This document shows positions 35,346-64,000 of a stretch of DNA of 64,000 bases, piece by piece. The position numbers and the translations under genes were made by a program. The number at the start of each line of letters is the position of its first letter. Within the stretch, counting starts at the first letter, position 1. The DNA is taken from NCBI GenBank assembly GCA_039621445.1, contig CP154954.1, positions 27,865,735 to 27,929,734 on the forward strand, written 5' to 3'. Under the pieces are notes generated by a model, which saw only the letters and a program-made list of their open reading frames with translations, was not told the DNA's origin and searched no databases. The stretch comes from Euglena gracilis (Eukaryota).

Positions 35346-35360
35346 CGCCCTTGGTCGTCT

Positions 35361-35531: not shown

Positions 35532-35536
35532 GGCCC

Positions 35537-38687: not shown

Positions 38688-38801
38688 ACAAATTGTGGCT
38701 GAGCCCAGATTTCAGCCTGAAAACGTGTTCAGGGGCCCCCTTCGGGGGCCCTCCTGCTGAACACGTTTTCAGGCTGAAATCTGGGCTCAGCCACAATTTG
38801 T
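38688..38801. repeat. ~114-bp palindrome, copy 1 (others at 39934-40046 and within 40765-40985)
   Basis: acaaattgtggctgagcccagatttcagcctgaaaacgtgttcag arm and its exact reverse complement. Confidence 0.9.
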
Positions 38802-42308: not shown

Positions 42309-44102
42309 TGAACACGTTTTTAAAGAAATGTGATTTCACATGTTAAATGATTCAAAAAAATGCGTCACTTTTCTGGTCATTTTTGGGTCGGGACGGCAAT
42401 TTTTCAAGGGAAAAAAATGTTCAAAAACTTTCTTTTGGTTCCCCGTCATTTTTAAGAAATTTTGGTGAAATTGATTTTTTTCGGCAAAATGGGTGAAAAC
42501 GACATTGCGGGAAGCCTACATTGTTGTTTTGGGAGTACCCTCACCCCCCCCAAAAGTCCCCCCAAGTGACGAAAAATTTTGGCAAGTTTTTGTTTACCCC
42601 CCCCCCCTCAACTGGCCATTTTCCTTCGGCACCAAAAGCGCCGAAGGACCCCCCCTCCAAAAGTGTCCCCCCCTCAAGAGTGGCCATTTGGGGTGTCACG
42701 TCACTGGGAAAGCTGGGTGCTGTTAGACAGGCTGTTGGACGGGTTTCTCTTATTTGGCCCGTTTGATGCTTTGGCAGCCTTGGGGAGTTATTTCCAAAAT
42801 ACAGATTTTCTTGCTTGCAGATGGACCCTGTTTTATCATGCGCGTTTTTGGGGGGGCATTCTAAGGGCGTAACTCGAGCTACACACAAAATTAGCATTAA
42901 AATGGAGTATTTTTTTTAGCGCAAGCCCAATGGGATATTTGTCTATTTGGCGGGAGTTGGCAAAACAAATGTCAACTCTGCTTCACAGTGAATAAAAGTT
43001 TGATTATCATTTTTTTCCAGATCATTATGAAAATTCGGTTTTCCAAATTCTTGTTCCTGGTCGCGGTCTGGGGGGGGGGGGGGGCGTCCCCCTCCCCCCC
43101 ATTAACCCTCACTCTCCCCTTCCCATTTTTTGTGGACATTTCATTTTTCGATTTTGAAAAATGTTCTAAAACTTTTTGCTGTCCCCGGGGGGTGGCTTGA
43201 CCTCCCTCCCCCCGGACCCCAATAACAGTCAAAGCCTTTTTCGGATTTTTTTTTGCAAATTTTTTGAGTGACCTCAATACAGAAAGCACATAAGAAAGGG
43301 TTCCACCCCCCCACACCCCCACAAAGGCTTTGGGAGCACCAATATTTGAAATGTATGCGACTTTGGGTCCCGTGTCTGACCCAGTCAATATTCCCTTGAA
43401 AATGGCCATTTCAGGTTCCGGCACCTTCAGTGCTGTGCGATGTGTATAGCAGTGCCCATTGGGCAGTGCTATACCACATCGCACGGCGTCGAAGTTGCCG
43501 GCCCGAAAATGGCTTCTGATACGAAAACTGTGTTCAGAACGCCGGTTCGGGCGTGAAGCCGTGTTTCAGAACGCCGGTTTGGGCGGCAGAAACACGGCTT
43601 CACGCCCGAACCGGCGTTCAAGGAATCACGGCCAATTTCGCCCTAAATACCCATTTTTTGAACCTTTTTGAGCATTTTTGACCTCCTTTGGGGGAATGGC
43701 GATGTCGATCAGCCGATTGAAGTTTTCACAAATGTGATGCCATGTTACCCATCAATCGAAAGCCCTTCTCAAGGGCTTTTGACAGATGGCCACAGGATTC
43801 AGCAATAATGCACACAGCGCTTATTTTCAGCGATCGTGTATTCCAAAATTTGACATCTTAATTTGTGAAATCCCACACCTCAGGTGCCATACAGCATATC
43901 AATCGAAAGCTCTCCCCATGAGCTTTCATTTGGTACCCTCAGAACTCAGCCACACTGCACAGCGCCCTGAAAATCGCCGATCGCATGTTCCGACCTTTTT
44001 GGCAAATTCCAAATCCACTGTTCACCTGCCATGTTGCCCCTTGATCAATAGCCCTTCTCAAGGGCTTTCAGCATATGGCCTTAGATTTCAGCCGTGCTGC
44101 AC

Positions 44103-44103
44103 G

Positions 44104-44146
<43 letters not shown>

Positions 44147-44205
44147 CCATACAGCACATATAGCGCGTATACCACACATACCATGGTATATATATATATA
44201 TATAT
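44103..44205. repeat. (GT)n/(AT)n microsatellites
   Basis: Directly visible. Confidence 0.9.
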
Positions 44206-45047
44206 TCTATTTCAGAAATCCCCCAAATTTGACCAAATGAAATTGTTGCACAAAATACCCCAATTTCTGGCCAAATACCCCCCCAAAAACTGCTCAGATA
44301 TGATTGCCACGTGTCTAAAAACCATTTTGGACACTTTTTGGCACTTTTTATTTTGGGTCCCCTGGACACTGTCTTTCCGCCCGAACCGGCGTTCTGGACA
44401 CCAGTTCGGGCGTGAAGCCAGAGCTTCAATACATGGTTTCAAGAAAAAATGCCCACCCCAAACCCAACCCCCCCTCCCCCCCGGGTCGAGAGTGCCCAAC
44501 CCCCCTGCCTGCTCATAGCACCTTGGGGGCGGGGGGACTTGCTCATGAAAGAAGCTGGAGAAATCCATCCTCGTAAAGGCACTCATAAACCAAAACTTTT
44601 GTCCTGTTCGGACAAAACTCAGCATTCAAAGAAAACATTCAAGCAATGAAGAAGAGAAGGAGGAGAACAGAATCCACGCAAATAAACGGACAGCGTTTTG
44701 GGCTCTCGGGCCTACACTGCAAATGTTTTTGTTGGGGCCAAGACTTTGGGAGCAAGGAGCCTTAGAAAAATATGGACCTCGGTTCTGGATTCGGGAGGAA
44801 TCTACAACGTCAGCGGGGGGGGGGGTTTAAGACCGTCAGCGGGGCCACACTTACTGTCCATATTTGGTCGAGGTTTCCATTTTCCCTTGCGCACCTGTGT
44901 GATATTTGATCCATTTTTAGCATATTTTTTTTCATAAAAAATCAAGAGGGTATTTTTTTCCTGAGAGTTGACTCTGGGGCTTTACTTTATTGGAGGAATT
45001 TTTTGAGGAACATCATTATATGCAAATTTTCATTGGTTGTTCCACAG

Positions 45048-45173
45048 AACCGTGTGTATTCACCTGGGATGAATTTCAAGCTCCCATTTGTGGAGTGGCC
45101 GATAATTTATGACTGCCGGACACGACCTTCCGAAATATCATCTGCCTCTGGAAGTCGTGACTTGCAAATGGTC
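45048..45173 (+). CDS. PHB2: Prohibitin-2 exon 2 (NRVYSPGMNFKLPFVEWPIIYDCRTRP...GSRDLQMV)
   Basis: Follows a ttccacAG acceptor in phase 0 with exon 1. Contains PHB motifs WPIIYD and GSRDLQMV. Confidence 0.9.
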
Positions 45174-47367
45174 ACAAAAGGTGCTCTTTGCTGGGAATCG
45201 CGAATGTGGTAACACCACTGATATCTTTTCCCAATTTGGCTGCGTTAAATTTTTTTCCAGCAAGGGAGTGAACTTTTTGCAGGCTGCCCCAAAAACCCCT
45301 GCGGTTTTTTTGTTGTTTTATTCTCCCTCTGGCAACGTTTAAATTAACCCTTTTGCGTTCAATTTCACCCCCCTGAAAAGTTGATGTGGAACCAATTCCT
45401 TGCAGCCGGCGCCCTCTATCCTTGGAATGAATTGACTAATTCTCGCAAAGAAATGACAGAACTGATGAAAAAAATTTAACAGAATTCCTGAGCGTTTTCA
45501 CAGGGTTTTTTTGAAAGTTTTTGACATGTTTTTTTGCATGGTTTTGAAACAAATGGCATTTTATTTGAATTTTTTTTAGTCCCTGAAACTGCCCTATTGC
45601 ACAAAACGCCACACCAACGTTTCAATTTCTGTGTCAATTTTTTGCAGAAGTTTGTCAAAGTGTCTCGCAAGTGCTGTCAAAGTTTTCGAATAAATTTTGA
45701 ACATTTTTTCAAAAATTCTGTCAAAAAGTTCCAAAAACTTGTCAGCAGCTCCTAGCCGGGCTGTGGAATCCTGGGGGCCACTGAAAGTTGGGAGGAGGCT
45801 TGTGCTTAGTCGGGTGCCCACCCCACGGTGGGTGGGTGGGTGCTAGGGGCAGGCACCCCATAGCACCCACCCACAGGCAGGGCAGGGTGGGGTTTTGGGG
45901 GGGTGCCTGCCCACAGCAGGCACCCCCCTCCGACCCCGACGCCAAAGGCGCCGGGGGCCCAGAAAAGGCCATTTTTAATGAAAATTTTCTGGGTCCCCCC
46001 GGACCCCCCCCCCCGGGAGGGGTGTGCCCACTAGGGGCAGGCACCAGGGTTCGATATAAGGAGGGCGTACATGGTTTAGGTGGGGGGGGTGTCCCCCCCC
46101 CCCACCCCCCCCCCCTCCTGGCCCGCAGGGGGGGGTCCGGACCACCCCCCCCCCCACCTGCAAGGGGGGTCCGGACCGACCCTCGGGGGCAAAAATTGAC
46201 CCCCCCCAAAAAGGGTCATTTTTTTCCTCCGGCGCTTCGCGCCGAAAATTTTTTGCATTTTTGGCACATTTTTGCCCAAAAAGTGCCCAAAATGGCACTT
46301 TTGGTCGTTTTGGGGGGTCAAAAATTTTCGGCCCGGCGCTTCGCGCCGGGCCGAAAATTCGACCACCCTGACCGCGCACCTGTTTAGGTGGGGGGGGGGG
46401 TCCCTCCCCCACCCCCCTCCCCTCCTGGCCCGCGGGGTGGTCCGCCCCACCCCCCCCCTCCTGTCCTTATATCGAACCCTGGCAGGCACCCTATAGCACC
46501 CACCCTCCCCCCCCGGTCGGTAAGCACAAGCATGGTTGGGACCAGCTTAGTGAAGCTGGGCTGGAACAAAAATATTTTTGGCGCAACGCGCCAAAATTTT
46601 TGCAAGAATGGTTCAAAACAGTAACAGGGTGTCATTTGCCGAAACGAAGTGGACCCATCCCCCTGGGGGGGGGGAGTCCAGCCAGCCAGCAGCTTTTTTC
46701 CAGCCAGCAGTCGTTTTCGCCCCGTCGACGAGTTTTGATTTTTTTCCAGCCGCCCTTTGTGCGGCTGGACAGTAACAGTTTTTTGACTTTCGAGGGAAAT
46801 TGGGCAGAAACGGGTCGGATTTGGGCTAGCTAGTGCATATTTGGGGTCAAAAAAAAATCCATTTTTTGCATAATTGGCAGTTTTTTGGGCATTTTTTTGG
46901 CTTTTCGATTTTTTTTGGAACCCAATTTGACCCCGGGTCGGGCCCACTTCTAGCTGGGGGACCCCTATGGGGGGGGCAAGGGGGGATTGCCTTTTTCCAG
47001 CCAGCCCAATTTTTTTCAGCCAGCCCATTTTTTTTTCCAGCCTCTGAGGTGGACCCAGGGAGGTCACTGCGCGATGTCTTGTTCAAAATGGCCATGGTTT
47101 TCTCCAATCTTTGGCTGAAATATCCCAACCCATTTTTTTGCTACCCGCCAGGTCCAGCCACCCGCCCCCCCCCCCCCCCGGAACCCCCACTTAACCAACA
47201 CCTTTTTTCCAGCCAGCACCTTTTTCCAGCTAGCCCACGGGACCCCCCATCCTCATACCTCAATGGGAACTGTGCTCATGTCTGAGATCGTTCCATTCTT
47301 GTTGACATCGATGATAGGTCTGGAGAATATTTCTGCTTTTGGGTTGGCCGAACAGCATCTTTGACCT
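45174..47367 (+). other. Nonconventional (non GT-AG) euglenid-type intron 2 of PHB2, 2194 nt
   Basis: C|ACAAAAGGTGCT...AGCATCTTTGACCT|G. Positions +4..+12 pair with -6..-14 (one G-U), both junctions are Y|R, and removal restores MV-DLTLRVL. Confidence 0.82.
46045..46481. mobile_element. hAT-like MITE, TIR CAGGGTTCGATATAAGG, 8-bp TSD GCAGGCAC
   Basis: Perfect TIR, TSD at 46037-46044 and 46482-46489. A second family member lies at 54132. Confidence 0.88.
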
Positions 47368-47467
47368 GATCTCACACTCCGAGTTTTGTACCGCCCTGGC
47401 AATGACCTTACACAGCTCTATCGCACACTTGGGACAAATTACGCCCAGCGCCTCTTGCCGTCCGTGG
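47368..47467 (+). CDS. PHB2: Prohibitin-2 exon 3 (DLTLRVLYRP...LYRTLGTNYAQRLLPSV-G)
   Basis: PHB motifs LTLRVLxRP and YRTLGxNY. The 5' boundary is non-AG (nonconventional intron). GTGTGC donor at 47468. Confidence 0.88.
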
Positions 47468-48324
47468 GTGTGCTATTGCGAAGTAGCTCAAAAAAACTGA
47501 CCTGCTTTGCATCATGCTGGCGCTTGGAACACATTGCCACATCATCTGTTTACCACAAAGTGTCAAAGTGTCAAGCAAGAAAGGTCAAATAGTGTTTTCT
47601 TTCAACTGAAGCAAACACGCCAAATACAAAAGCCCCCCCGGTGTGAATTTCGGTGTGAAGACCCTTGGGGCCATGTGAGGGGAAAAACTTTTCTGGGTGG
47701 CCTACAACATTTTGGCGGTCTTCAAATGCGGTAAAATGCCAATATGTCAGAATTTTGGGTTGCATATCTCTTATCGCGTACCGAAATGTGCATTTTTTGT
47801 GCAGCATGGAGTTCTGCTGGAATACTGTTTTATCCACCCAAAAATTTCTGTTTTTTCCCCTGAATGGCATCATCCCGCGGGCTTCACATTTGGGGTGGGG
47901 GCTATGTAGCTTGAGGTTTTATTTCTTCAGAGTTAGCGAAGCTCACCACCAGGGAAAGGGGGGGGGTGAAGAACCCCCACCCCTGGGCAGGTAATGAAAA
48001 CAGCGGATTATCACCATGACCTTGGACCCATTCCCTGAATTTTTTGCGGGCGCCTGGATCCTGGCTTTCTGAATCACCTCTGTTTGACCCCCCAACTCCC
48101 TGCCAGGCCCGGGTTATTCAGCCGACAAGGGGTCCAAACTGGGTAGGATTAACCCCCCCCCCAATTTTGACTCTGCCATTTGGCTGGGGTGTTATTTTCG
48201 GTCAAAAGCTTTTTTTTCGGAAATAATTCAAGAAAATTCACATTGCATTTCGGAAAGTGTCTGCCAAAACAAATGTGCCCCAGAGACCCTTTATCGCCCC
48301 TGGATGCTGTTTTAGCTGCCGAGT

Positions 48325-48475
48325 GTTGTGACCAATGACGTGGCAAACGGGCATGTGCATTGGATGAAAAGGCATCTATTTCCAATGCCAAATCAAAAGA
48401 ATCAGCCAATGTCGCGATTTTGGAAAACCATCGTTCCAAAATGGATATTGACCAAAATTGAAAGCATTCCATACG
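48325..48475 (-). pseudogene. Isolated fragment of a related methyltransferase domain in PHB2 intron 3
   Basis: [38 protein letters not shown] aligns with [38 protein letters not shown] at 12155-12270. Confidence 0.8.
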
Positions 48476-49827
48476 GACATGCCTGGTTTGTGTTCTGGCC
48501 CGCTTTTTTTTTTGCCCAAAACAGCCATTTGGGGGAGTTTTTAGGCCTTTTTTGGGTCTAAAATCAATTTTTCAAACTATTTTGAAGGAAAGGAAGATGA
48601 AGGAAACGTCCGACGACCAAAAGATGAAGCCCTCGGAATGCCCTATCCAACCATCTTTTATTTTTTTCCCAACTCTTGATGTAGCCCGAGTTACGGCCAT
48701 TCTTCGGCCAACTTTGGCCCATTTTCGAGTCCATTTTGGGCTGGTTTGGGGTGTCGAAAATCGATGTTTCAAAGATATCTCGAAAATGGAAATTTCAAAA
48801 TATCTACAGGATGGGCAAATCAAAGGAAATAACTGTGGACCTAAAAATGAAGCGTTAGGACCTCTGACACCCCGTACAGTACCAGGGGGGGGGATAAGCA
48901 AGCATTTCTTGAAAAAATTGCATGGTTGGAAAATTTGTGAAAAGTCGCATTTTTTACAATTTTTTGCACATTTACCTTTACGATGGTTTTTTTTTGTACA
49001 GGCAAACTGCTCTATTACAAGGAACTGGAAGTTGCATATTACATAATTTCTGGACCGATTTCACGTCAACAGCAGTGAACCACTGGGTAAACCACCGTGC
49101 GATTTTGCACCTTTGCACCATATTTGCTTTTGGTGCGGCACTTTGCAGTGTTTTTTTGGCATTTTTGAAAAAATTTGCAAGACATTGTTTTGCTGATGTT
49201 TTTATGGGTTAGAAAAGCGCAAATAATTGTCCAGAATATGCACTGTGTTGCATAGGAAAATGCTGTTGCAAAGTGACAAATTTTCCCCCGAGGAGGTGAA
49301 AAGTGAGATGGAAAAAAGTCCTCTAGCAGAAAAGTGTACAACCCCGCCGAGCTCCTGAAGGAATTTACATGCAAATTGAATTTTTTGCATTGCTTTGCAC
49401 TTTTTTCTACGCTTTTTTTGCATTTTTGCATTGAATATTTTGGTCCTGGAGCCTGTACAGGGTGATGGAAGGCCCCAGTTATTTCTTTGGGTCTCCACCA
49501 TTTTAGGATATTTTGAAATGTTCGATTTTTTGACCCCAAAATGGCATATGTTTGTGGCCAGACGCCTAGCTGGTCCAGGCGGCCTATATGCAGGGGGTGG
49601 GGATCGCACCTTGCCCCGTTTTGATCTTTTTTTGGGTTACAAAATTGGAAACCTTCAAAATATCTGGCCAATTCTTTAAAAAGCCATTTGTAATGTTATT
49701 TTGATTCCCCTGCAACTGAACGCTGCGCCAGGCCGCCGGGCCGCCGGGCAACCATGTCTCCCAAGCATCTGCTGCTCCATGCCACCATTAGGCAAGTAAA
49801 GAGCTCTACACAAAACCTGGTATTTAG

Positions 49828-50215
49828 CAGGCTTTTGCTTAAGGGATTGCAGTACCCCCCCTGGGGGGGGGCTGGACTGCAGCTAGTCCAAATTTGGCTA
49901 GTGGGTTTTCTAGCAGACCCCCCCCCGGGGGGTCTGCTAGCAGGGCTAGCTAGTGGAAATTTTTTTTCCAGTGACCGGCGCGAAGCGCCAAAAATTTTTT
50001 TGGGACCCCCAAAAATGGCCAAAAATGCCCGTTTTTGGCCATTTTTGGGAATTTTTGGAGCAAAATCAGCCAAAAACCTGTTAAAAACCTCATTTTCAAG
50101 TCCAGGGGAGCCCGGACCCCCCGGGGGGAGGGGGGTCTAGCTAGTCCACTTTTTCCAGTGTCTAGCCGATTGGCTAGCCAGTACCCCCCCTGGGGGGTCC
50201 TTAAGCAAAAGCCTG
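49828..50215. mobile_element. hAT-like MITE, TIR CAGGCTTTTGCTTAAGG, 8-bp TSD GTATTTAG
   Basis: Perfect TIR and TSD. Confidence 0.88.
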
Positions 50216-51184
50216 GTATTTAGGCGTCGAACCAAACCCCTTAAACCCCCTGGGGGGCTTTACATTTGAGGATGGTAAGCTTTTTGAGAGAGGATTTATA
50301 ATAATTCTTTCTTGCTTCACCAGGTGATTCAATGTGTGTTTTTTTGTTGTTGATTCCTTTGCCCAGTTCTTCTGTTTACAGGGTGGACAAATATTCAGGT
50401 TGTTTTTATTGTGCTTTTTGATCGGTGTCAGCTCTCACACCCCTCTTCCACGAAGCCCCAGACAAAGTGATTAACAGTAACTGGAAAATGGTCTAAAAAT
50501 TGCCCCAAAACGACAGAAAATGCATGCATGGCAACAAATATTGACTTCTCAGGCATTTTTTTAGGCAAAGTTGCCTAATTTGACTCTTCAATGAAAAGAA
50601 AGGACAAAACATCTTGACACATAGCAGAACAGAGCTAAAACTGGTTGGATATTGAATTTTACCATTCTATTTTTCAAAAAAACACCGTTTCACCAAAACG
50701 AATGAAATTGTTTTTTTTTAACCATAATGCCTTTTATCATATGTTTTGTCACTGTAATTTTTGTCTACGCTTTAACCTCACTGCAAAAGTTCCTAGAACT
50801 CGTTTGGTAATACCTTTTTAGACTCTGGACAAGGGTGGCCAAAATGGACTCAACCCCAATCCACCACTGATCTCCAACCAGTCTCACTCAACTCCCAGTC
50901 GCAATTTGGGTCCAGCTCACTGCAGCCAGATGTCACCAAAAATTCCCAAAATTCTCTGGGTTTACCTTGAGGTGTGCCCAAACATAGCTATGGCTGCTGG
51001 ATTGTTTCACAACTGAATTTGTGGTTTTTGGGGAGTTTCAGCTAGCCTGATCCAGCTTGGCAGCCAGCTTCCCCCCCCCCCCCCACCAGGGCATTAAGTG
51101 AGCGTTGGCTTTGTATATGGAGGGGGGGCCAACCCCCTCCCTAGAGGGGGTGGGGTCTGGGGACCCCCCATACAACCAAATTTT

Positions 51185-51570
51185 TTTCTTCCCCGGAGAA
51201 AAAATTAACCCCCCCCCAAATATAAAGCCCCCGGTTTTATATTTGGGCGGAAATTTCAAGACCCCACAGGGGGTTTTATATTTGGGGGGGTTTATATTCA
51301 ATCGGATAAATCAACTTTTTGGCGGGACACAATAGTCACTTTTTCGGTCCAAAATCACAAATATGTCCACCTGGGGGGTCAAAAAATTTCCCTTTTTTGG
51401 TCGAAGGAGCAATTTTCAAACGTTTTTGGTAAAAATTGCACCCAAATCTGCCAAAAATCGCAATTTCAGGAGAGATTTTGTCGACTTTCCGGTCGCGCCA
51501 GAGGGGGGGTTTTACATTCGGGCGGGGTTTCAAGGTCCTCAGGGGGGTTTTATCTTTGGGGGGGGGACGG
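51185..51570. repeat. Dispersed repeat with an inverted copy at ~57200-57605
   Basis: aaatataaa(a/g)ccccc motifs and the ggtccaaaatcacaaatatgtccac core are reverse-complemented in intron 6. Confidence 0.75.
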
Positions 51571-51977
51571 GGGTGCTGGACCACCCCGCTGCCCGGGGAG
51601 GGGGGTCCGGGACCCCCCCTTCCCCCTTCTCTCACTTAATACCCTGCCCCCAGCCCAGGGTTGTACAAGAATCCCCAAAATTCTATGGGCGGGCTGCCCC
51701 CCCAGCAGGCCTTCCCGTATTTCGAGGGGTGCCGGTGTTTAATTCAAAGTTTTCCTTGGGCAGTGCGTGGTGGGGGGGGGTTGACCCACTCCTTCCCACC
51801 TCCTGGGTGGGGGGTCAGACCCCCCCCACACCAGGCTTTCGAGCACAGCCGCGCCCCACTGCAACCATCCAGCACCTTCCATGATATGTTTCAATTCAGT
51901 TTCACCAGTGGTTTGTCTCTGAGAGTTTCCCACAGGCTATATGATGATGTTTCGGATTGCGTGTTATGGCTTCACAG

Positions 51978-52108
51978 GAAACGAGGTCATGAAGTCTGTC
52001 CTGGCACAGTACAATGTTTCGGAGTTGCTGACGCGCCGGCAGGATGTCAGTGCTGAGATCAGTACGCATCTCGTGAACCGCTGCAAGCAGTTCAACGTGA
52101 TGGTGGAG
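51978..52108 (+). CDS. PHB2: Prohibitin-2 exon 4 (GNEVMKSVLAQYNVSELLTRRQDVS...FNVMVE)
   Basis: ttcacAG acceptor, phase 1 matches exon 3. NEVxKSVxAQYN motif. GTGTGT donor at 52109. Confidence 0.92.
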
Positions 52109-52758
52109 GTGTGTGCTTTACCTTTTGGCCAATTGTTTGTTAGAAATCAACAGGAAATAGCTGCAGGCATTTAAAGTAGTGCCATGTCGAATTGGTTTAA
52201 TCCCAGCTAATAAGACAGGGCCTCTACAGGAGCAGTGTTCAAACAGGAGCACCCCATCTTGAACAAAAAGCATTCACCACACAAGCACTCCTCCCCAGTC
52301 CACCCAAACAGAAGGATGGGAAGCCTTTCAACGGAGTTGCGGCAAGCTATTGCATAATTTTCCCAAAGGAAGGAAGTATTTTTGGCTAAGAAGGCATTTT
52401 TTTGATTTTCCCCCTCCCCACAAATGCCTGATTCATGTGGGATTTAAGAGGTGAGGGATGAAGAACAAGATGCAATGACGTCTATGACATAAGCCGGAAC
52501 CAAAATTATAGAGCCCCCCTTGCTGGAAGCTGCGTGACGTCCAATAAATGTGCAAAGCCCTCATACAGCCTGCATTTATTTTTCATAGTTCGCACATCTG
52601 TTCAGTTTTTGTAAGAGGTTTGGAAGTATTGCTTTTTTTATTTCCAAGCAGGTTTTTCAGGTGCTTCTTTGAGTCCCGGGTAGTGCCAGGAGCAAGTGTG
52701 GAGTAGGTTGGGCTCTTCGCAGGCACATCATGTCCCCTTTTTCCGCCCCCTCCTGCAG

Positions 52759-52889
52759 GACGTGGCCATCGTGCACCTCACCTTTGGGCGCGAGTACTCC
52801 TCCGCTGTGGAGGCCAAGCAGGTGGCGCAGCAGCAGGCGGAGCGGGCTCGCTTCCAGGTGGAGCAGGCAGTGCAGGAGAAGCGCAGCAA
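52759..52889 (+). CDS. PHB2: Prohibitin-2 exon 5 ([44 protein letters not shown])
   Basis: cctgcAG acceptor and the [15 protein letters not shown] signature. The 3' boundary is non-GT and can slide by 1 nt because of a repeated A. Confidence 0.9.
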
Positions 52890-53407
52890 AGGCAGGGTCC
52901 GGTCGGGTCGGGGCAGTTTGGCGGGAAGGGGGGGGGTGGGCTGCTCTGGGGGATGACTGAGAGTTCGATATGAGATGAAGGCTACTTCCGGGTTTCGTTG
53001 ATTTCTTTTGGGTCTTTGGGCGAAGAAAGTTTGCAGGTTCAGGTGGTCTTTGGGGGGACAGGCACCTTGTGTTACGTTGACGACCTTCAGGACCACCCTC
53101 AGGTGTAAGGGGCAAAAAAAACAGCCGATTTGGGGATTGAACGGGGTCAAAATTAGAAAAAGTATAAGGCCAAAAAACCCCCATTTTTGACATTTTGGGT
53201 GGATGGGATATGGTCCAATATTGCCAGAAATCATCCCCCCCCCCCCCGAAGTCGATCTGTTTTTACCAAAATGTGGATATTCTCGGTCATTGTTCCTGTG
53301 GGGTTTTGACTGAATGTGTGGGGCGGGTATTTTTTTTTGCCTGAGGAAGTCCTTTGAGAAATGCACCTGTATTTGTCATGCTGTATCAGTGACAGCACCC
53401 TGCATCC
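52890..53407 (+). other. Nonconventional euglenid-type intron 5 of PHB2, 518 nt
   Basis: AGGCAGGGT...ACCCTGCATCC|A. CAG at +4..+6 pairs with CTG at -8..-6, and removal restores EKRSK-IVLAEGEA. Confidence 0.85.
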
Positions 53408-53476
53408 AATTGTCCTTGCAGAGGGTGAGGCAGAATCAGCTAGGCTGATCGGAGATGCCGTCAAGAAGAACCCGGG
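53408..53476 (+). CDS. PHB2: Prohibitin-2 exon 6 (IVLAEGEAESARLIGDAVKKNP-G)
   Basis: IVxAEGEAxSAxLIG motif. GTGTGT donor at 53477 (phase 2). Confidence 0.88.
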
Positions 53477-54131
53477 GTGTGTAGTGTGTGGCGCGCCTCG
53501 TCCACTCAATGGATGCCTCACTTCCAACAGGCATATGTTTTAACTCTTCCTTTTGATTGCTGAGGTTCCCCCATAGGCATGTTTCTCATTCACTTGCAAT
53601 TGAGCATTCCCAGTGTCAGCTGCAAAGGTACAATTTTCCTCACCCCACACCGAGACCTGACATCTACTACGAGTGGTAAATATGAAAGGCAGCTTTTTTT
53701 TTGATTTCTGGCGGGGTCCCACTGTAAAGCGATCCAGGGACTGAAGGCACTTCTGCTTTGGGCCTGGAAACTTTATATGTGATGGGTGGGGGGGTGGACG
53801 ACCACCCCCACCTCCATCATCCCAACCCACTTTTTTCCGTTTTTTTTCATATGTGTCAGTATTTTTAAATAATTTTGCTTCGGTGCTGAAGGAATTTTTC
53901 TTAATGCAACCACTCCTCCCATGCCCTCCTGTGCCTTCTTGTGTCATCCCTGTCTGCTCCGAAGGTGAACATGGCGAAACGCATTTTTGGGCATTTTCAG
54001 GGGGAAGACAAGAAACCCACGCTTCCTTTTGTTAAAAATGGGACCCTTTTGCAAATAAAGGCTGTCATAAGTCATTGTAAAATCTTGTTAAACTTGGAGG
54101 AGGTGTTTAGATCTGGGGTCTCCCAACAGAT

Positions 54132-54526
54132 CAGGGTTCGATATAAGGAGGGCGTACATGGTTTAGGTGGGGGGTGTCCCCCCACCCCCCCCCCCCCCTG
54201 GCCCGCAGGGGGGTCCGGACCCCCCCCCCACCTGCAAGGGGGGCCCGGACCGACCCTGGGGGGGGGGGTACCCGCGACCCCCCCAAAAGGGTCAATTTTT
54301 TCCTCTGGCGCTTTGCGCCGAATTTTTTTTTGCATTTTTGGCCATTTTTTTGCCCAAAAAGTGCCCAAAATGGCACTTTTGGTCGTTTTGGGGGGTCAAA
54401 AATTTTCGGTCACCCTGACCGCGCCACTGTTTAGGTGGGGGGGATGTCCCCCCCCCCCCCCCCGCCCCCCAGGGGGGGGGGGGCGGACCCCCCCCCCCCC
54501 CCCCTCCTCTCCTATATCGAACCCCG
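54132..54526. mobile_element. hAT-like MITE (same family as 46045), 8-bp TSD CAACAGAT
   Basis: Near-perfect TIR, TSD at 54124-54131 and 54527-54534, and internal similarity to 46045-46481. Confidence 0.88.
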
Positions 54527-55736
54527 CAACAGATGTGCATGCAAAAGGACACGAAAGGTATTGCTTTTTTGCCATCTAAATCTCCAGATTGACACTCACA
54601 GTTGAATGTTTCCAGGTTTGCATTTTTGGGTGGGGCTTCAATTTCGCCCCTGCATCGAAACAGCCACCTCAAAGAAAGTTTCCACCTCAAAAATAATAAT
54701 TTTAGAACAATCAAAATTGGCAATCAATTGCCAGCTTTTTGATGTGTTTTAAAATTTTTATGCTCTGGTTTAATTTGCACAAAAATGCATAATTTTTTTT
54801 TTGCCAAAATAGAATTGGTTGACGTAAAATTAATTAGCTGTCCCAATTTGTTTGATCTAAAGGCAAGCCCTTTCCTGGAAGGGAATTAAAAGGATTTCCA
54901 TTTGTGGAGGGTTTGCCATTCAGAATACTGTGAAATGGTCGGTGTTTTTTTAAATTTAAGCCGATAGTTCTACTGGGGAGGGGAGAACCTCCCCCAGAAA
55001 ATTTGGAATCCTGACTTTTGGTTTCCTGAGCCTCCGCGGAGCTTGGTACCTGAGCCTCTCCGGAGGCTTGGTTTCCTGACCCTCCGCGGATCCTCCTCGT
55101 AGGTGACCAATTTTGTACGCAGGCTATGTCTATGAAACAAAAAGAAAATGTTTTGAACGGTTGACCCTCACCCCCCCCACTCCCCCCACTCTCCCACATT
55201 AATGCCCAAAATGGAGGAATTTATTTTCATATTTCACCCCCACACCCCGCAAAAAAAAGAAAATGAACAAAGCTTTTGTTTTTTCGCACCCACCCCCCAG
55301 CGCACCCCCACCCCACAAAAAAAGGAAGTTAAATTTTTGGTTCTTTCCCTCCAACCCCCCAAACCCCGCCTTTTAGCAGAGCCCAAGAGCTTTGCGTGCC
55401 CAAATCAATTTGCCGAGGGGAATGCCAAAAAAAGATTTGTCCAAATAATTTTGCCCTCATCTTTCACTAGAAACAAAAGTGAAAAGCGATACATCTTTCT
55501 GGAACAGAAGGAGGCAAAAAGAGCAAAGAAACGCCACAATATTTTGCTCTCCAGTGAAGAGGAGTATTAAATTAATTAAATTCATCACAGCACTGTTTGA
55601 TGTCAAATTGCTTGAAGAAAAAGTGACAAATCAATAATAATTTTGCAGGGTTCCAGAAAAGGTGGTCCACTAATTTTGCAGGGACAAAGCCATTCATGGA
55701 CCCCTAGTGTTCCTTCCCCCCCCCTGTCGCTGTTAT

Positions 55737-56010
55737 CAGGCTTCTTTTTAAGTCAGCAGACCCCCCCCCCGGGGGGGGGGGGGGGGGGGGGGTCCGGGCC
55801 CGGCCCCCTCCCGGGGGGGGGGGGGGGTCCCGCGCCGGAGGCGCTGGGTATACCTTTTCGGCGAAGCGCCGAAGATTTTTGGAAATTGCCTTTAACGGGC
55901 CCGTTTTTGGGGGGGGGTCCCTGCCCCCCCCCCCGGGGGGGTCCCGCGCCACCCTGGGTGGGTGGGGGGGACCCCCCCTCCCCCCCCCGGGGGTCTTAAA
56001 AAGAAGCCTG
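55737..56010. mobile_element. hAT-like MITE, TIR CAGGCTTCTTTTTAAG, 8-bp TSD GCTGTTAT
   Basis: Perfect TIR and TSD. Confidence 0.88.
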
Positions 56011-56037
56011 GCTGTTATCATCAGACAGCCACCGGAC

Positions 56038-56145
56038 CCCCCCACCGGACCCCACCGGATCCCACCGGATCCCACCGGATCCCACCGGGGGTCTTTTAAC
56101 CATTTAACTAGTGGGTTCCCACCGGATCCCACCAGATCCCACCAG
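56038..56145. repeat. 10-mer tandem repeat (cccaccggat)n
   Basis: Directly visible. Confidence 0.85.
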
Positions 56146-59071
56146 AGTTTTTTTTTCCATGCACAGATTTTTCTTCTGGATTTATGGCCCATGTGAGAAG
56201 AATCATTTCCGAATGTGCAATTTGCACAAATTTCCACCAGTACCCCATCTGTAGTTGATTTACATTCTTTTTTTGTCTGGTTTCCTGCACACCAGCAACA
56301 ATCTTTTCCTTTTTGGCCATTTTTTTGGCTATTTTTGGACCACTTTTGGCCACTTTTGTCCACTTTGGGCAGTATTTGGCAATTTAGACCATTTTTGGCT
56401 GTTTGAATGCATTTTTGCTTAATTTTCACCAATTTTTGGCTGCTTCTGGCTATTTTTGCATATTTTTGTCCAATTTTAGGCCACTTCTGACTGCTTTTAT
56501 CCACTTTTTGCCCCTTTTGGCCATTTTGTGGCCATTTGCACAGATTTGGTGACCATTGGTACAGCTTTGGTATGATCTGGCGGCAAAACCAGGTGATTTG
56601 GGCCAAATTTGTGGATGAAACTGACGACCCCAGGGTGAGCAATGAGTACATGACATCATGTGGCGATCCCATGTGACGATGGGGCAAAGGATCCTGAGCA
56701 CCTGGCTGGGCCATTGCTGTTGATTGCCTCTTGATGCCTTGTTGATGGCCTCTTGGTGTTCTCTGCTTTGCGGTTTTCCATCAAAAAATCATGTATTTTG
56801 GGTTCATTTTTCAAAAGCAGGGTCGACCCCCCCACCTCCCGGTTGGGGGGTCCACCCCTCCACCAGGACTTCCCATTCTGCCGTGGCCTGCCCCGAAAAG
56901 ACCATTACATACCTCTCCCCTCTTCCCCTGGAAGTTGGCAACCAGCCCAAACAATCACTTAGTCATTGACCAACCCCCTCCCTTGCACATTGTGTAAATC
57001 GCCCAAAAATTCTGACGCTCTGTAAACGGAAGAGGAAGAATATACAGACCTTTTTGGTCCTCTGTCTGCGATTGAAGTACTGGGTCATTTGGAGATGATG
57101 GGGGAAACCGCGTGAAAAAAAAAAACAGGAGAATGCAAAGAAGCGGTTTTCCGCTTCCTCAACCCCAACGAAATAATTTTTGGACAGATCACTAACCCCC
57201 CCCAAATATGACCCCCCCAAATGCAAAACCCCGCCCAAATATAAAAACCCCCTGAGGACCTTGAAACCCCGCCCGAATATAAAACCCCACCTCAGGCGCA
57301 AAGCGCCGGAAGGAAAAAAAAGACAAAATCTCTCTGAAATTGTGATTTTTGGCAGATTTGGGAGCAGTTTTTACCCAAAAGTGTGAAAATTGCTCCTTCG
57401 CCCGAAAATTGAAAATTTTGGACCCTCAGGGGTGGACATATTTGTGATTTTGGACCGAAAAAGTGACTGCTGGTCCCGCCAAAAAGTTGATTTTTCCGAC
57501 CGAAAAAAAAATATACCCCCCCCCCCCAAATATAAAACCCCCGCGGGGGTCGTGAAATTTCCGCCTAAATACAAAACCGGGGGGTTTTGTATTTGGGGGG
57601 GGTTATATCAGAAGAAGAATACCACTGAACAATCTGAATAGGAAATTACACTGCATTCATTGAAAACATCAAACTGTCAAGAGAAGTAAATGTTATATGT
57701 TGGTGAGTTGCACACATTGCATATACGGTTAAAACTGGCCAACACTTACTCTCGTTATAGCATGTGGGTAGCAATAAATTCAATTCAAGGAAGTTCAACT
57801 TAAAATTTTTGACTTTGAAACTTTGAAATTTTGAGAACAATTTTACGGGGTTCAAATTTGACTCCAAAAAAATTACCAAAAATGTTGTGCAAGGTTGCAA
57901 CAAAACTTTGACCTACTTTGGGACCCGTATAGGGGGTCCCCCAAAACCCCCCCAAACCCCATTTTTTTCACATCTTCTAAAATTTCAACATTTCTCATAT
58001 TTTGATTTTCAGAGATTTTTGAAGCAAAAAAAAATGCCATTGAAAATCCAAAAAGTTTCCAAAGAGAAAAACTCTCAGTAAAATTCGAATGCTCCAAAAT
58101 TTGGTCCCATTTTTTTGACCTGCATTTTTTGATCCCTCCTGATAACTAACAATTTTCAACCCGAAAATTTTGGAGATTTTTTTGGGGGAAATGTTGTTTT
58201 CCATCAAAAAATGATGTATTTTCTTAGGTGGCCTATCTCGCACTTAGCTTTGAAAGTGACTGTAAATTTGCGCCGACGCGCAAATCTAAAAAAAGTCTGT
58301 TTTCGAACACCGTGGCCTGAGACTCAGGACAGTCTGAAGATAGTGTCTCCCTGCCCCAGGGCCTTGGGGACGAAAGCAACGACTTGGAACTCCACGGTCT
58401 ACTGTCACAGCGTTCCCGGGGCCCAGTGTGCATGAACACAAAGCGCCGGGTGATGAAACAAGGGGACTCCATTGTGCATTTGCGCTTTGGCGCAATTTTT
58501 TTTCATTACAAAAAATAAAACCATTTGCGCTTTGGCGCAATTTTTTACTTTTTGTATTTCAACATGTGGGTGACCATTGCCACACTTGCACAATGATAAC
58601 AACATATGTGTAAACGTGTGCTTCCATTGCGCCAAAGCGAAATGGGTAGGCTCATGAAGAATGGAAATTTAAGAGTTATATTGCGCCAAAGCGCAAGCAG
58701 AAATACAATTTTTAAAATTGCAAAAACAACATGGCCGAAGCGCAATATAACTGGTTAAAACTTATCTCACAACGCAGGGAGAAAACGGCCCTGGTGGAGT
58801 AAGAACACCAGAGGGGATAGAGCAGAAAAATGTAGTACAGGTGGATGGCAGCCTACTCTCAGTCACGTTGCCTTAAAATTGGTCAACATTGCGCGTCGGC
58901 GCAAGAGCCACGTTGCTTTTACAATTTTAAAAATATATTTCTATTGCGCTTTGGCGCCATATAACTCTTAAATTTTCATTTTGCAAAAGCCATCAATTTT
59001 TATTTTCTATTTTTATCATTGCCAGTGGAGAGAGCAGTCCTGGGAGCATCTCATCACCAAGCACCTATAGT

Positions 59072-59204
59072 AAAAATGGCCGAAAATGGCCGAAAATGGC
59101 CGAAAATGGCCGAAAATGAAATTTTGGGCTCTATAGGTGGGGGTTCCGAAAATGGCCGAAAATGGCCGAAAATGGCCGAAAATGGCCGAAAATGGCCGAA
59201 AATG
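59072..59204. repeat. 10-mer tandem repeat (aaaatggccg)n, related tract at ~60915-60998
   Basis: Directly visible. Confidence 0.9.
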
Positions 59205-59647
59205 AGAAAAAATTTGTTGCAAAAATTTTCGAGTTTTTTTTTTTGCCTGACAGTTTCTTTTTCCCTGAGGGGCAGTGCGACTGATTCTTGTCTCTGTGCA
59301 GCCTCTCTTCTTTTGTTATTATGCCTGGCCCTGCAACCCATTCTGCGCAAAGAACCACCTGCGAAAGGGTTATTTGGGCCAAAGCTGATATTTTGATGGC
59401 ATTTCAGAAAAAAATTGGTGACAAGGGCGATGCTGGCAATGTTCTTGTACATTTTGAAGATTTAAACCCATTTTTGGAATAATTTCTCCACAAATTTCCA
59501 ATATTACTCCCATGTTGGCCATTTTGGATCAATTTTTGCTAATTTGGGGATATTTTGCACTGATTTGGCAAATATTGGGCTAATTTGGGTTTTTTGTGGT
59601 CATTTTGGGGGGTTTCTGTGGTCATTTTGCTAGGTTGGGAGCCAGTG

Positions 59648-60215
59648 GATGCAGTGGCTACAGATACTGGACAAGATGCAATGGATGCAGATGCTGAACA
59701 AGATGCAGACTGAACAAAATGTCGACATTGGACAAGATGCAGATGCTGTATGAGATGCAAATGCTGGACAAGATGCAGATGCTGAACAAGATGCAGACGC
59801 TGGACAAGATGCAGATGCTGTATGAGATGCAGATGCTGGACAAGATGCAGATGCAGAACAAGATGCAGACACTGGACAAGATGTAGACACTGGACAAGAT
59901 GCAGAGATGCTGTTCAAGATGCAGATGCTGGACAATATGCAGATATTGGACAAGATGCAGACGTTGATGCAGACACTGGACAAGATGTCGACACTGGAGA
60001 AGATGCAGATGCTGTACAAGACGCAGATGCTGGACAAGATGCAGATGCTGGAGAAGATGCAGTGGATGCAGATACTGGACAAGATGAAGATTTTGACAAG
60101 ATGCAGGTATTGGATAAGATGCACACACCAGACAAGATGCAGGGATTGCTGATGCAACGGATGTAGATATTGGACAAGATGTAGATGCTGGGCGAGATAA
60201 CAAGATGCAGGTATT
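59648..60215. repeat. 18-mer minisatellite (gatgcagatgctggacaa)n
   Basis: About 30 degenerate copies; explains the repetitive ORFs on both strands. Confidence 0.9.
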
Positions 60216-61860
60216 GGGTGAGCACATCTGATGTCAATATTTCAACATTATGGACCAATCACATGTTTGCTTGTTTTTGTTTGCTTTTCTTTGCTTGCAC
60301 ATGCTGCTCAACGAACCACCTCCAAATGGGCAAAGCCGATTGTTTTGATGACATTTCAGAAAATTGTGGTGACAAGGTGCAACTAGGCAAAGTATGTGAA
60401 GTGTTTTTTTTCCTCTGTTAAAGGTGTGATTCCTGCATTAGGTTTATTGCACACAAGTGGATGGGATATAACAGTGCCACCATCAAACAATGTTGCTTGG
60501 GGTATCAAGTTGGAATGGGTGAGGGGAAGTTGTTTGTGAAAAGTATCCACGACAAGAGGTTTGAAGAGAAAAGCATCAGTTGTGGTGTTGCCATCCACCA
60601 TTGTGGTTAATATGTCATGTGCCAACCACTCTCATGAGGCGTCCCAAAAACCCCCAACAAAAAAAGACCAAACTGGACAAGAGCCTCCCTGGCAGAAAAA
60701 AAGAAGCTTATTCCCAAAACCTTGCATTTACATATTGCAACAAAAAACTCTTTGACCTCTTTAATCCCTGAGCGCCCATTCCAAGCGAACCTCTTTGGAT
60801 GCGTTAGCTTGTCACGATTGCTTTCATGTTGACTGAATGATCAAAATGTATTGTTGGTATTAAAGTATTTTAAGGCAGCTTTACCCCCCACCTATTAACC
60901 CCCTCCCTATGGAAAAAATGGGCGAAAATGCGCCGAAAATGGCCGAAAATGCCTCGAAAAAGGCCGAAAATGGCCCGAAATGGCCGAAATGGCGAAAAAT
61001 CTGCCCTCAATACTATAGGTGCTTGCTCATCACCAGAGCGGACAGAGCTCAGGTGGAGGGAAACCTTGCCTGGGACAGGAAGCCAACCCCCTGGTGTGTG
61101 AAAGCAACCACCAACTACTTGATATCCAGACGTGTCTTGTCCTGTGCGTTGTGAGCCCAACTTCCAGTGCCAGAGATTCCTCCCACTTACCTCGTAGTTA
61201 AGCATGCCTGAGGGGCCCTTCTTTTTCGCCGACTTTTGAAAGTCGGAAAATACCTGTTTGGAAAATAACAGGCACCAGATGAACCCTGGGAGTCACAGCC
61301 GAGGAAACGTTTTTTTTTCCCGCCGAAAAGGTGTTTTAAAGAAGCTCGTCACCCCCTTTTCCTCACCCAGGATTTGAAGCACACAACTTTGGGGATGGGA
61401 GAATGGAATTGAGAAATCGAAATGGTCCATTAACAACGGCGGAGAAGGGAAGACATGTTGACACACTTTTTTTTTCGGTAATTGCAACCCACCAGACAGC
61501 CACATCACACCGGGCAGATGGAGGACATGGTTCAGCCAAAACATGTCTTTCTGTCAACATCCCAAAACCCCTATTTTGTGCACCGAGTGCAAGGTCACTA
61601 AGGCTCCACAGCCCACCGCCCACGATTTGTCTTATTGGAACAGCCACTCCCTCCCCTGTGCCTGAATAGTTGAAAAGCACCAACCGAGCTTCTGGCACAG
61701 CAGCGTTCAAACCCCCCTCATCATTCTCCTCTATCGCCCACCTTCTCACACAGCACGAACACATTCAAATGCATCTGCTTTTTGAAAGGACACTGCGCTT
61801 AAGCGCAAATTTTTAATTTGCGCTTAAGCGCAAGTTAAAAATCTGCGCTTAAGCGCAAGG

Positions 61861-62186
61861 TAAAACAGAAGCCCCCTGAGCTTATGGGAGTCCCTCTGAT
61901 GTGTTACGGTGTGTTGGGGGCCCCTCTCTGAACGGCCAGTGTGCGGACTTGGTGAGGAAATACATTGCGCCAAAGCGCAATGGACATGCCTACGTAATGC
62001 ATTATTTGATCATTCAGATTACACGTCAACCGTGTGTTTGCATTTCTCGTTTTTTTGCATGATGCTTTGCGCTTCGGCGCAAGGTATTTCCTCACCAAGT
62101 CCGCGCGCTGGCCGTTCAGAGAGGGGCCCCAACACACCGTACCACATCAGAGGGACTCCCATAAGCTCAGGGGGCTTCTGTTTTAA
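61861..62186. repeat. Foldback element with ~120-bp inverted arms, flanked by GCGCTTAAGCGC palindromes
   Basis: 61861-61980 is the near reverse complement of 62067-62186. Confidence 0.8.
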
Positions 62187-62994
62187 ATTGCGCTTAAGCG
62201 CAAATTTTTACCTTGCCTTCTGTGCCCGGCAGTGTGGGGCCTGGAGTTGCTCACCAGACGTTGGGACAGGTCCATGGGCTTGCCCTCAATCCCCCCAACA
62301 CCGCCCGCCTGGGTGGTTCCCACTGTACCGCTCCTCGCACTTCAAGCACCCAGGGATCAGAACTCTGTGATGCCATTTTTTCCCAACTTTTCACAACGTG
62401 CATGCAGAGTCCACCCTCTGGACGCCTCAGCAGGCAACCCTTAACGGACGCATCGCAGATCCCAAAAAAAACAACAAAAAGGGCCAAATTACACCCGGAT
62501 TGTGTAGCACCATCAGGGGAGCACAGTAGAGGCTTCAAAAACGAGGGACTCGCAATGGGGGTTTTGGCACTTTTTGGGTGAAATTCACGTGTCCCGGCGG
62601 TCAAACCCAGGGTTTTGAACCTTTTTAAAATGCTGCACAGGCTGAAAAACACCAAAATTGGGCCTGTTCCCCAGGTCCCAACATCGGAAAATGATGCACA
62701 CGCCACCGTAGAGGGTCTCCGCGGAACTAGAGGGTCCAAAGGGTGGGTTCTACCGCCGGGTCTCAAAAAGTTTGAAAATTTGCGCCAAAGCGCAAGCTAA
62801 AAATCAAAACCTTAAGTGCAAGTTAGGCCGCCTAAGATTTTGGGTTCATTTTTCAAAGCAACTTTCAAAAAATTTCCCAGCCAAAATCCTTATTTTTCAG
62901 CTGAAGTGTATTAGGACAGATTTTTTTTTTGCTCAAGGACCGCCCTGACAGAAGAGCATCAAATCGCTTCATTATTCATTTTTTATTTTTCCAG

Positions 62995-63118
62995 GTTCAT
63001 GCAGCTGCGACAAATCGAAGCAGCCCGAGACATCGCTATCCTTCTGAGCAATGGCAAGAACCGCGTGATGCTGGATGCGGATACCCTGTTGCTTGACCTC
63101 AAGCCTCGGTCGTCGTAG
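62995..63118 (+). CDS. PHB2: Prohibitin-2 exon 7 (FMQLRQIEAARDIAILLSNGKNRVMLDADTLLLDLKPRSS*)
   Basis: Polypyrimidine tract plus ccAG acceptor, phase 2 matches exon 6. PHB2-type C-terminus NRVxLDADxLLL. TAG at 63116-63118. Confidence 0.9.
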
Positions 63119-64000
63119 GTCACAAAGCATCTCCTCCTTTCTGTTATTTTTGCATTTTTTTCTCTGGCGGCAGACAGCACCACGAGTGCCTTCAGGGCTG
63201 CTTTGTACCTACCAATACCAGAGGGGGGGGTCAGACACCTCTTTCCCTCTCATTATTTGATGCGCATTTCACGTTTCCTCACCATTATGGCAGAAGCTGG
63301 CAAAGAGCCAAGCCATTTCCCTACTCCACATTTTCCCGCAGAACATCTTGCATGTTGGGGATGGTTCGCTCATTTTGGTGGGGAATGGCCCCGCTCAATA
63401 TTGCGGACAACCATCTGCACACCGTTGCGTTGTTGATGCACATCTCGTGTAAATGGCACGTTTCCGGGACATTGTCTGCCATTTTCAATTGCAGCGCTCT
63501 GAGGTTGCCACACCGTGTCGTTGACTCACACCTGCGTCAACGGCACATTCCTGGAACACTGCCGTGCCTTACCGGTGACCCTCAGCCGATGCAAAGGAGC
63601 AGATGCCCCCACCTTTCCCTCTCGGATGACTCGCACAGGGCGGCGACGGTTGTTTCTTGGCCGCTCCGGGCAGTGTCCGGCTGGGCAGGACTGTACCTAC
63701 CGCAGACCAGGAGCCTTTGGCCCCTCCTTTTCGCATGCTTCCAAATCGTCGTCGCCTCTGGTTGTTCCAAGCATGTCGCCATGCACCCGAGGGTTTTCAT
63801 GAGCGATGCCACACAGCGCATGTGATGTTGACCGCAATAGAAACGCGAGGTGTGCGTTCCCCACTGGCATTTGAAAGCTTTGATGATTTGGCCTGGAAAG
63901 CGGAGGCATCCCATGCTTCCTTAATGATAGCATACAATGCAGTCACTTTCATATGGAGTGCCACAGGTGACTCGCTACTCCTTCACGACTGTGCGCCGCT

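Follow-up and report, generated by a model that had tools for sequence, protein, structure and literature searches.

The window analysed here, a 64,000-nt stretch of Euglena gracilis nuclear DNA, contains a prohibitin gene with two nonconventional introns, together with a set of MITEs (miniature inverted-repeat transposable elements) that begin with CAGG, mostly end in CCTG, and are flanked by target-site duplications (TSDs) of 8 bp. When the cut positions of nonconventional splicing are applied to such a MITE, a cut 3 nt before its left end and 5 nt after its right end removes the element plus 8 nt, leaving TSD positions 1-5 of the left copy joined to positions 6-8 of the right copy, that is, one intact target. 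The arithmetic works in either orientation, because the MITE ends are inverted repeats. Since these ends reproduce the cis-code of nonconventional splicing letter for letter, and since the TSD length equals the sum of the two offsets (3+5), a MITE of this kind would be excised scarlessly from an exon. This geometry leads us to regard non-autonomous, cut-and-paste CAGG...CCTG MITEs with 8-bp TSDs, four families of which are present here, as the most likely source of CAG/CTG nonconventional introns, a conclusion that we hold to be probable rather than secure. The anatomy of the introns and of the MITEs, the TSDs and the signs of recent mobility are all observed in the window.

The prohibitin gene, for which we keep the name PHB2 given by an initial annotation of this sequence, is the only host gene in the window and consists of 7 exons at 31027-63118 on the plus strand. 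Two transcript-derived proteins match the 43-aa translation of the exon just upstream of intron 5 at 100% identity, and one of them, P0001 (eukprot:EG_transcript_16185; 291 aa, Pfam Band_7/prohibitin), carries an EG_transcript name that we take to denote the Euglena gracilis transcriptome. All seven exons were placed by tblastn of P0001, and the translation of the joined seven-exon model is exactly P0001 (291 aa plus stop). The coding sequence of 876 nt is spread over 32 kb, with introns 1 (13.8 kb) and 6 (9.5 kb) filled by repeats. Introns 1, 3, 4 and 6 are of the GT-AG type, and the gene is organised as follows, all features being on the plus strand.

31027-31221 (+): PHB2 exon 1 (aa 1-65), placed by tblastn of P0001 at 100% identity and by exact spliced translation
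31222-45047 (+): PHB2 intron 1, GT-AG, 13.8 kb
45048-45173 (+): PHB2 exon 2, placed by tblastn and spliced translation
45174-47367 (+): PHB2 intron 2, nonconventional and not slidable, with MITE 46045 nested inside
47368-47467 (+): PHB2 exon 3, placed by tblastn and spliced translation
47468-51977 (+): PHB2 intron 3, GT-AG
51978-52108 (+): PHB2 exon 4, placed by tblastn and spliced translation
52109-52758 (+): PHB2 intron 4, GT-AG
52759-52889 (+): PHB2 exon 5, placed by protein identity, tblastn and spliced translation
52890-53407 (+): PHB2 intron 5 of 518 nt, nonconventional, with a boundary that can slide by +1
53408-53476 (+): PHB2 exon 6, placed by tblastn and spliced translation
53477-62994 (+): PHB2 intron 6, conventional GT-AG, 9.5 kb, hosting MITEs 54132 and 55737 and element 59058
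62995-63118 (+): PHB2 exon 7 including the stop codon, placed by tblastn and spliced translation

Intron 5 reads AGG|CAGGGT...ACCCTG|CATCC and is followed by an exon that begins with A (53408), so that the exact gene model bears out the initial annotation, which had described it as 3 nt, CAGGGT...ACCCTG and 5 nt, with hexamers equal to the ends of MITE 46045. It lacks GT/GC-AG boundaries, beginning with AG (GG if slid by 1) and ending with CC (or CA), and the exact match of the exon model to the transcript-derived P0001 shows that it is absent from the mRNA. Its CAG at +4 to +6 pairs with CTG at -8 to -6, opening a helix with 6 contiguous pairs in which 10 of the first 12 positions are paired, and the duplex of the terminal arms has a predicted energy of -23.6 kcal/mol. 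The fold of the intron as a whole was not more stable than those of shuffled sequences (z = 0.79), and only the terminal helix is informative.

These features can be compared with a code for the splicing of nonconventional introns that has been experimentally defined as 5'-N3CDG-/-CH'GN5-6|R (Nomura et al. 2025, PMC12501133). As described in that study, splicing needs a 5' spacer of exactly 3 nt and a 3' spacer of 5 nt, for which 6 nt can substitute at a reduced level. Five fully artificial 50-bp introns placed in an E. gracilis exon, each combining CAG/CTG with spacers of 3 and 5 nt, complementary stretches of 12 bp and a purine after N5, were spliced out, and loss of pairing impaired function. 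The -3/+5 geometry that the initial annotation had read from the sequence coincides with this code. Because intron 5 combines N3-CAG/CTG-N5|R with a terminal helix and a downstream purine, it is a genuine euglenid nonconventional intron, and it is probably removed by machinery other than the spliceosome. It resembles described euglenid nonconventional introns (PMC12501133; Milanowski et al. 2014, 2016) in its ends, its CAG/CTG, the G/C at +7/-9, the inward pairing and the exon purine, and nothing sets it apart from them. Among 55 introns compared earlier, the +7/-9 pair was G/C in 31, giving CAGG/CCTG, and a purine opened the intron in 51 and the downstream exon in every one of the 55 (PMC4770533).

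Intron 2, ACA|AAAGGTGCT...AGCATCTTT|GACCT, forms a terminal helix of 9 bp (8 Watson-Crick pairs and one G-U) from +4/-6. The initial annotation had assigned it the same pairing register, which our analysis upheld, and it differs from the known introns by having AAA/TTT in place of CAG/CTG.

To catalogue MITEs, the whole window was scanned for exact 8-bp direct repeats flanking 12-bp terminal inverted repeats (TIRs), which gave 54 pairs. Real elements account for five of these, each with a TSD that is not a palindrome and not of low complexity, and the other 49 were discarded as noise in palindromes or homopolymer runs. Under stricter filters there were 6 matches in the window (4 starting with CAG), compared with 0 in each of 20 mononucleotide shuffles; the sixth match is a palindromic module within MITE 46045. 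A TIR-anchored scan likewise listed 54 CAG...CTG pairs, 3 of which had flanks identical at 8/8, all among the MITEs given below. Four elements within the prohibitin gene (46045, 49828, 54132 and 55737) start with CAGG and have a perfect 8-bp TSD and TIRs of 12-18 bp; three end in CCTG and one, 54132, in CCCG, just as the initial annotation had it. The elements, none of which is assigned a strand, are as follows.

46045-46481 (no strand): MITE of family A, 437 bp, with an 18-bp perfect TIR CAGGGTTCGATA...TATCGAACCCTG (12/12 in the scan) and the TSD GCAGGCAC at 46037-46044 and 46482-46489
49828-50215 (no strand): MITE of family B, 388 bp, with a 17-bp TIR CAGGCTTTTGCT...AGCAAAAGCCTG (12/12 in the scan) and the TSD GTATTTAG
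51087-51646 (no strand): MITE of family C, 560 bp, CAGGGCATTAAGTG...CACTTAATACCCTG (13/14)
54132-54526 (no strand): second copy of MITE family A, 395 bp, CAGGGTTCGATA...TATCGAACCCCG, with a TIR of 11/12 and the TSD CAACAGAT
55737-56010 (no strand): MITE of family D, 274 bp, with a 16-bp TIR CAGGCTTCTTTT...AAAAGAAGCCTG (12/12 in the scan) and the TSD GCTGTTAT at 55729-55736 and 56011-56018
59058-61025 (no strand): non-autonomous element, 1968 bp, with a 15-bp TIR CAAGCACCTATA...TATAGGTGCTTG (CAAG...CTTG) and the TSD CTCATCAC

In keeping with the usual description of MITEs, the family A to D elements are 274-560 bp long, non-coding and bounded by TIRs and a TSD, and family A is present in two copies in the window. 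The copy at 54132 is 87% identical to that at 46045 over 292 nt and has a different TSD, while families B, C and D are separate from family A and from one another. In four elements the terminal helix is an unbroken run of 15-18 pairs. That of MITE 54132 has a mismatch at its second position followed by 12 contiguous pairs, and that of MITE 51087 has 5+10 pairs around one mismatch. The flanks of the latter, CCCCCCAC and CCCCCAGC, lie beside a C run and are identical at 6/8, the TSD having decayed. Its inner core recurs at 57229-57605 on the minus strand (83% over 382 nt) without the CAGGGC termini, so MITE 51087 may be composite. The interior of the longer element 59058 consists of subterminal short repeats and a tandem array.

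A hairpin module, GGCGC-N4-GCGCC, flanked by A/T runs, recurs within otherwise unrelated MITE families, at 46231, 46335, 49977, 54307 and 57295 (and also at 46580), and related TGCGC-N4-6-GCGCA hairpins cluster at 58269-62781. A further pair, CAGGCT...AGCCTG (12/14), brackets exon 4 at 51933-52572 and was rejected as a chance match: its flanks agree at 2/8, and on a rough estimate chance alone should yield about 6 pairs of this 12-of-14 quality.

Evidence on the insertion state of these elements came from the window itself and from mapping of three raw RNA runs and one run of DNA contigs (X2) over 44700-64000. The empty site of MITE 46045, made of its flanks and a single TSD, aligns gap-free across the junction to a paralogous target at 45822-45872; the MITE sits inside another repeat (46010-46530), an uninterrupted sister copy of which lies 200 bp upstream. 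For element 59058, a loose end in 2 contigs of X2 runs from the left flank straight into the sequence after the right TSD. This is an empty site, which makes the insertion polymorphic or allele-specific. Summed word depth in X2 reached ~1.8e5-8.8e5 in MITE bins compared with ~90-230 in unique bins, a rough measure that is inflated by poly-G/C runs. CAGG...CCTG MITEs with 8-bp TSDs are real at this locus and look recently mobile.

Among the 15 joints listed of more than 1000 in the read mapping, none connected prohibitin exons and none corresponded to -3/+5 removal of a MITE. The listed joints were mostly false, arising from poly-C homopolymers, chimeric family A alignments and repeat-copy variants seen only in X2. 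At 46093-47179 and 54448-54504, hundreds of RNA reads have long poly-C loose ends at C/G runs that give rise to false joints, probably through a sequencing artefact or mis-mapping of low-complexity sequence. A metagenome scan with the 18-nt TIR of family A gave 8 loci, all of which were rejected as chance matches, since only 7-15 of 42 positions agree beyond the 18-mer; about that many chance matches are expected by a rough estimate from the length of the 18-mer and the size of the collection.

MITEs of the hAT superfamily have 8-bp TSDs and short TIRs starting with CAG or TAG; the hAT terminal motif is YARNG and the target preference nTnnnnAn. The elements described here are alike in having an 8-bp TSD (5/5 elements), TIRs of 15-18 bp in four elements and a CAG start in 4, with CAA in the remaining one. 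In the TSDs at 46037, 49820, 54124, 55729 and 59050, position 7 is A in 5/5 (background frequency of A 0.23), which suggests a target-site preference, and position 2 is T in 2/5. The start CAGGG of families A and C fits YARNG, whereas CAGGC, found in two families (B and D), and CAAGC depart from it at base 5. When the 7 largest open reading frames (ORFs) in the window were searched against Pfam for a transposase, only retroelement domains or no match were returned. The hAT-like label is therefore best treated as a lead and not a placement, resting on TSD length and the terminal CAG. Merlin elements, which also have 8-bp TSDs and have TIRs that start with GG, have been reported from E. gracilis (PMC8101967). 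Membership in Merlin was rejected, as the inverted repeat of the elements here includes the outer CA/TG, and once GG is made the first base the flanks cease to repeat one another directly.

Taken together with the published code, this anatomy suggests how a MITE could become an intron. An exonic CAGG...CCTG MITE in either orientation would be transcribed as N3-CAG-stem...stem-CTG-N5. The nonconventional machinery would read the terminal CAG/CTG helix and cut at a distance of 3 nt on its upstream side and, ahead of a purine, of 5 nt on its downstream side, so that the element would leave together with 3 nt from the left copy of the TSD and 5 nt from the right one. For an element of any length, the 5+3 nt left behind would restore the exon scarlessly, and the sole additional requirement would be a purine at TSD position 6. 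Later, the intronic parts of the TSD and the body of the element would decay, so that only the +4/-6 helix would be kept. Prohibitin introns 5 and 2 would then be the decayed end state of former MITEs.

Some published observations are in line with this scheme. If junctions derive from a TSD, a purine at both of them is what would be expected for two copies of a single TSD position (target position 6), and a pyrimidine|purine consensus at both junctions has been described together with TSD-like repeats (PMC11282704). In E. agilis, where nonconventional introns are the majority class (71.8% of 649,158 high-confidence introns) and 38.8% of them fall outside the defined code, 69.1% of nonconventional introns are 'slidable' owing to short direct repeats at their junctions (PMC12501133). 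The initial annotation had also called for young nonconventional introns with an 8-bp TSD, and the literature supplies a partial example in gapC intron 4. This intron, present only in E. agilis ACOI 323, taken as recently gained and the only such nonconventional intron described in that study, has 'eight nucleotide direct repeats' at its junctions, which are longer than those of any other intron studied there (PMC4770533). In the window itself, checking the code on the strand of the gene showed that 4/5 CAG-type elements have CAG...CTG with complementary middle bases, the other having CAG/CCG, and that MITE 51087 fits the full splicing code.

A number of observations weigh against a MITE origin. 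The first set concerns the MITEs. Every MITE copy in the window lies inside an intron and none is itself an intron; the idea that MITEs act as introners, put forward in the initial annotation, stands as regards the geometry and the existence of real CAGG...CCTG MITEs with 8-bp TSDs, and finds no copy in the window to exemplify it. On the strand of the gene a purine follows N5 in 1/5 CAG-type MITEs (51087 only), which implies that the spliceability of an insertion would depend on TSD position 6. In addition, removal with the tolerated 3' spacer of 6 nt would leave a scar where the TSD is 8 bp long.

The second set concerns the two prohibitin introns. The 8 nt before and after the helix are identical at 1/8 positions in intron 5 and 0/8 in intron 2, so that, as the initial annotation had conceded, neither retains a TSD. 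The AAA/TTT of intron 2 is not covered by the published code (CDG/CH'G), and the claim made for this intron holds for register alone. A blastn search (word size 7) with the body of intron 5 within the window returned only the self match, and the best local alignment of intron 5 to each of the five MITEs was equalled by 5-38 of 100 dinucleotide shuffles. Intron 5 is also present at single-copy depth in X2 (contigs at a depth of 70-73, as for the exons). If intron 5 was ever a MITE, only its helix survives. The identity of CAGGGT/ACCCTG with the terminal hexamers of MITE 46045 is weak evidence, because 33 of the 1083 CAG in the window are followed by GGT (3%), the match could have been to any of three different MITE hexamers, and G/C at +7/-9 is part of the consensus; chance alone would produce such an identity in a few percent of cases or more.

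The third set comes from the literature. Short junction repeats occur in 84.4% of all E. agilis introns, conventional introns included (PMC12501133), and junction repeats alone are therefore not specific. The 8-nt repeats of gapC intron 4 were attributed by the authors of that work to double-strand-break repair and not to transposition (PMC4770533).

These points bear most directly on the possibility that the correspondence is one of coincidence or convergence, in which the helix and its offsets are structural features of splicing, the MITE ends are set by a transposase, the introns have other origins, for example the repair of double-strand breaks accompanied by short duplications, or the conversion of conventional introns, and the MITEs are ordinary passengers. 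The lack of a TSD or MITE-like body in introns 5 and 2, the intronic location of all the MITEs, the break-repair interpretation of gapC intron 4 and the high frequency of junction repeats are all in its favour. CAG-ended transposons with 8-bp TSDs are moreover common across eukaryotes. Against this, coincidence would have to account for the agreement of three independent features (terminal CAGG/CCTG, a long terminal helix and a TSD length equal to 3+5), for the base class that the opening position of the intron shares with that of the following exon (PMC4770533), and for the repeats of exactly eight nucleotides at the one recent gain described. We judge this explanation unlikely, while regarding it as the most serious competitor to a MITE origin.

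The relationship could also run in the reverse direction, with MITE-like families derived from nonconventional introns, either through circles copied back into the genome or through capture of intron ends by a transposase. Nonconventional introns are reported to be released as full-length circles (PMC11282704 and PMC12621601, via another paper), and a circle comprising an element plus 8 nt would carry one complete TSD equivalent. The perfect 8-bp TSDs and long TIRs, the empty site and the unfilled paralogous target are, however, the signature of cut-and-paste transposition, and the MITEs lack a poly-A tail or other marks of a retroelement, which makes this direction very improbable. Finally, that the TSD/TIR structures are chance matches or assembly artefacts can be dismissed almost outright: poly-G/C runs fill the elements and create false mapping joints, and most pairs in the initial scan were noise, but the excess over shuffles under the stricter filters, the distinct TSDs of the two similar family A copies and the empty-site evidence for 46045 and 59058 all contradict it.

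Other repeats lie elsewhere in the window. Between 2343 and 29144, the minus strand carries large ORFs that either are retroelement genes or lack a Pfam match. Very large retroelement ORFs occupy 2343-18744 (-), with reverse transcriptase (RT), RNase H, integrase zinc-binding and core, SH3 and chromodomain matches at 8600-12352 (-) and a zinc knuckle at 14035-18744 (-); judged by these predicted domains, 2343-18744 is a Ty3/gypsy-type, chromovirus-like element. Its ORFs adjoin at single in-frame stops (6005/6006 and 14031/14032). A second group at 21098-29144 (-) includes ORFs with RT domains at 21098-24136 and 24605-27439 and a 618-aa ORF without a Pfam match. Within intron 1, at 35576-37335 and 38706-40970, nested near-perfect long palindromes of foldback-like appearance generate many spurious TIR/TSD matches.

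A transposon origin of nonconventional introns, to which the initial annotation had alluded as an existing hypothesis, has been in print since 2014, when a MITE origin was proposed by authors who stated that no transposable elements were then known in euglenid genomes (Milanowski et al., PMC3935182). It was repeated in 2025 (discussion of PMC12501133; PMC12621601), and a 2024 review called CAG/CTG a TIR and mentioned TSD-like junction repeats (PMC11282704, legend to Fig. 3D). The available passages of PMC3935182 and PMC11282704 name no source element after 2014, and neither '8 bp' nor 'hAT' was found in the available text of the review, where the geometry may be implicit in Fig. 3D. In the chromosome-level assembly of E. 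gracilis, DNA elements make up 4.60% of the genome and 32.73% is unclassified 'within the repeat elements' (PMC11252322); MITEs, hAT elements and introns receive no mention in the passages available from that paper. Published assemblies span 2.37 Gb for E. gracilis and 1.54 Gb for E. agilis. A full-text literature search, with figures and supplements outside its reach, found no explicit statement that 3+5 equals an 8-bp TSD, no link to hAT and no named Euglena MITE family with these ends. A MITE origin involving TIRs and TSD-like repeats is thus already published, and what is new here is a set of concrete source families and a quantitative 8-nt prediction. Our proposal shares with the earlier hypothesis (PMC3935182; PMC11282704) the idea that the inverted repeats at intron ends are TIRs and that the junction repeats are TSD-like, and adds to it actual E. 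gracilis families, the CAGG...CCTG ends, the 8-bp TSD and the explicit 3+5 point.

A close parallel is offered by the introners of Micromonas, dinoflagellates and Amoebophrya, multi-copy intron families with 3-5-nt TSDs that the spliceosome, or an altered version of it, removes (PMC11282704, PMC7789003). In those systems, as proposed here, non-autonomous TIR/TSD transposons turn into introns when they insert, and the element together with its TSD provides the splice signals. The Euglena case differs in that removal would be carried out by the nonconventional system, and in that none of the copies here was observed to function as an intron.

How nonconventional introns arose in euglenids, and why they are cut with the odd geometry of 3 and 5 nt, has been a puzzle since the 1990s. 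The MITE hypothesis lacked a named source element, and this locus supplies candidate families whose ends carry the defined splicing code, along with a model that makes a quantitative prediction, namely an 8-nt identity of the flanks in one fixed register. In its strongest form, for which the balance seems to us about even, the proposal is that nonconventional splicing may serve as an RNA-level 'undo' for one class of DNA transposons, its 3- and 5-nt offsets matched to the 8-bp TSD of hAT-like MITEs with CAG...CTG ends, so that exonic insertions with a purine at position 6 would be born as scarless introns, the mRNA and the excised circle would each carry one copy of the TSD, and MITE families such as those found here would be the living source of the majority class of introns. 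If this is true, the host would neutralise a transposon family at the level of RNA, and Euglena would have gained introns on a genomic scale without the spliceosome.

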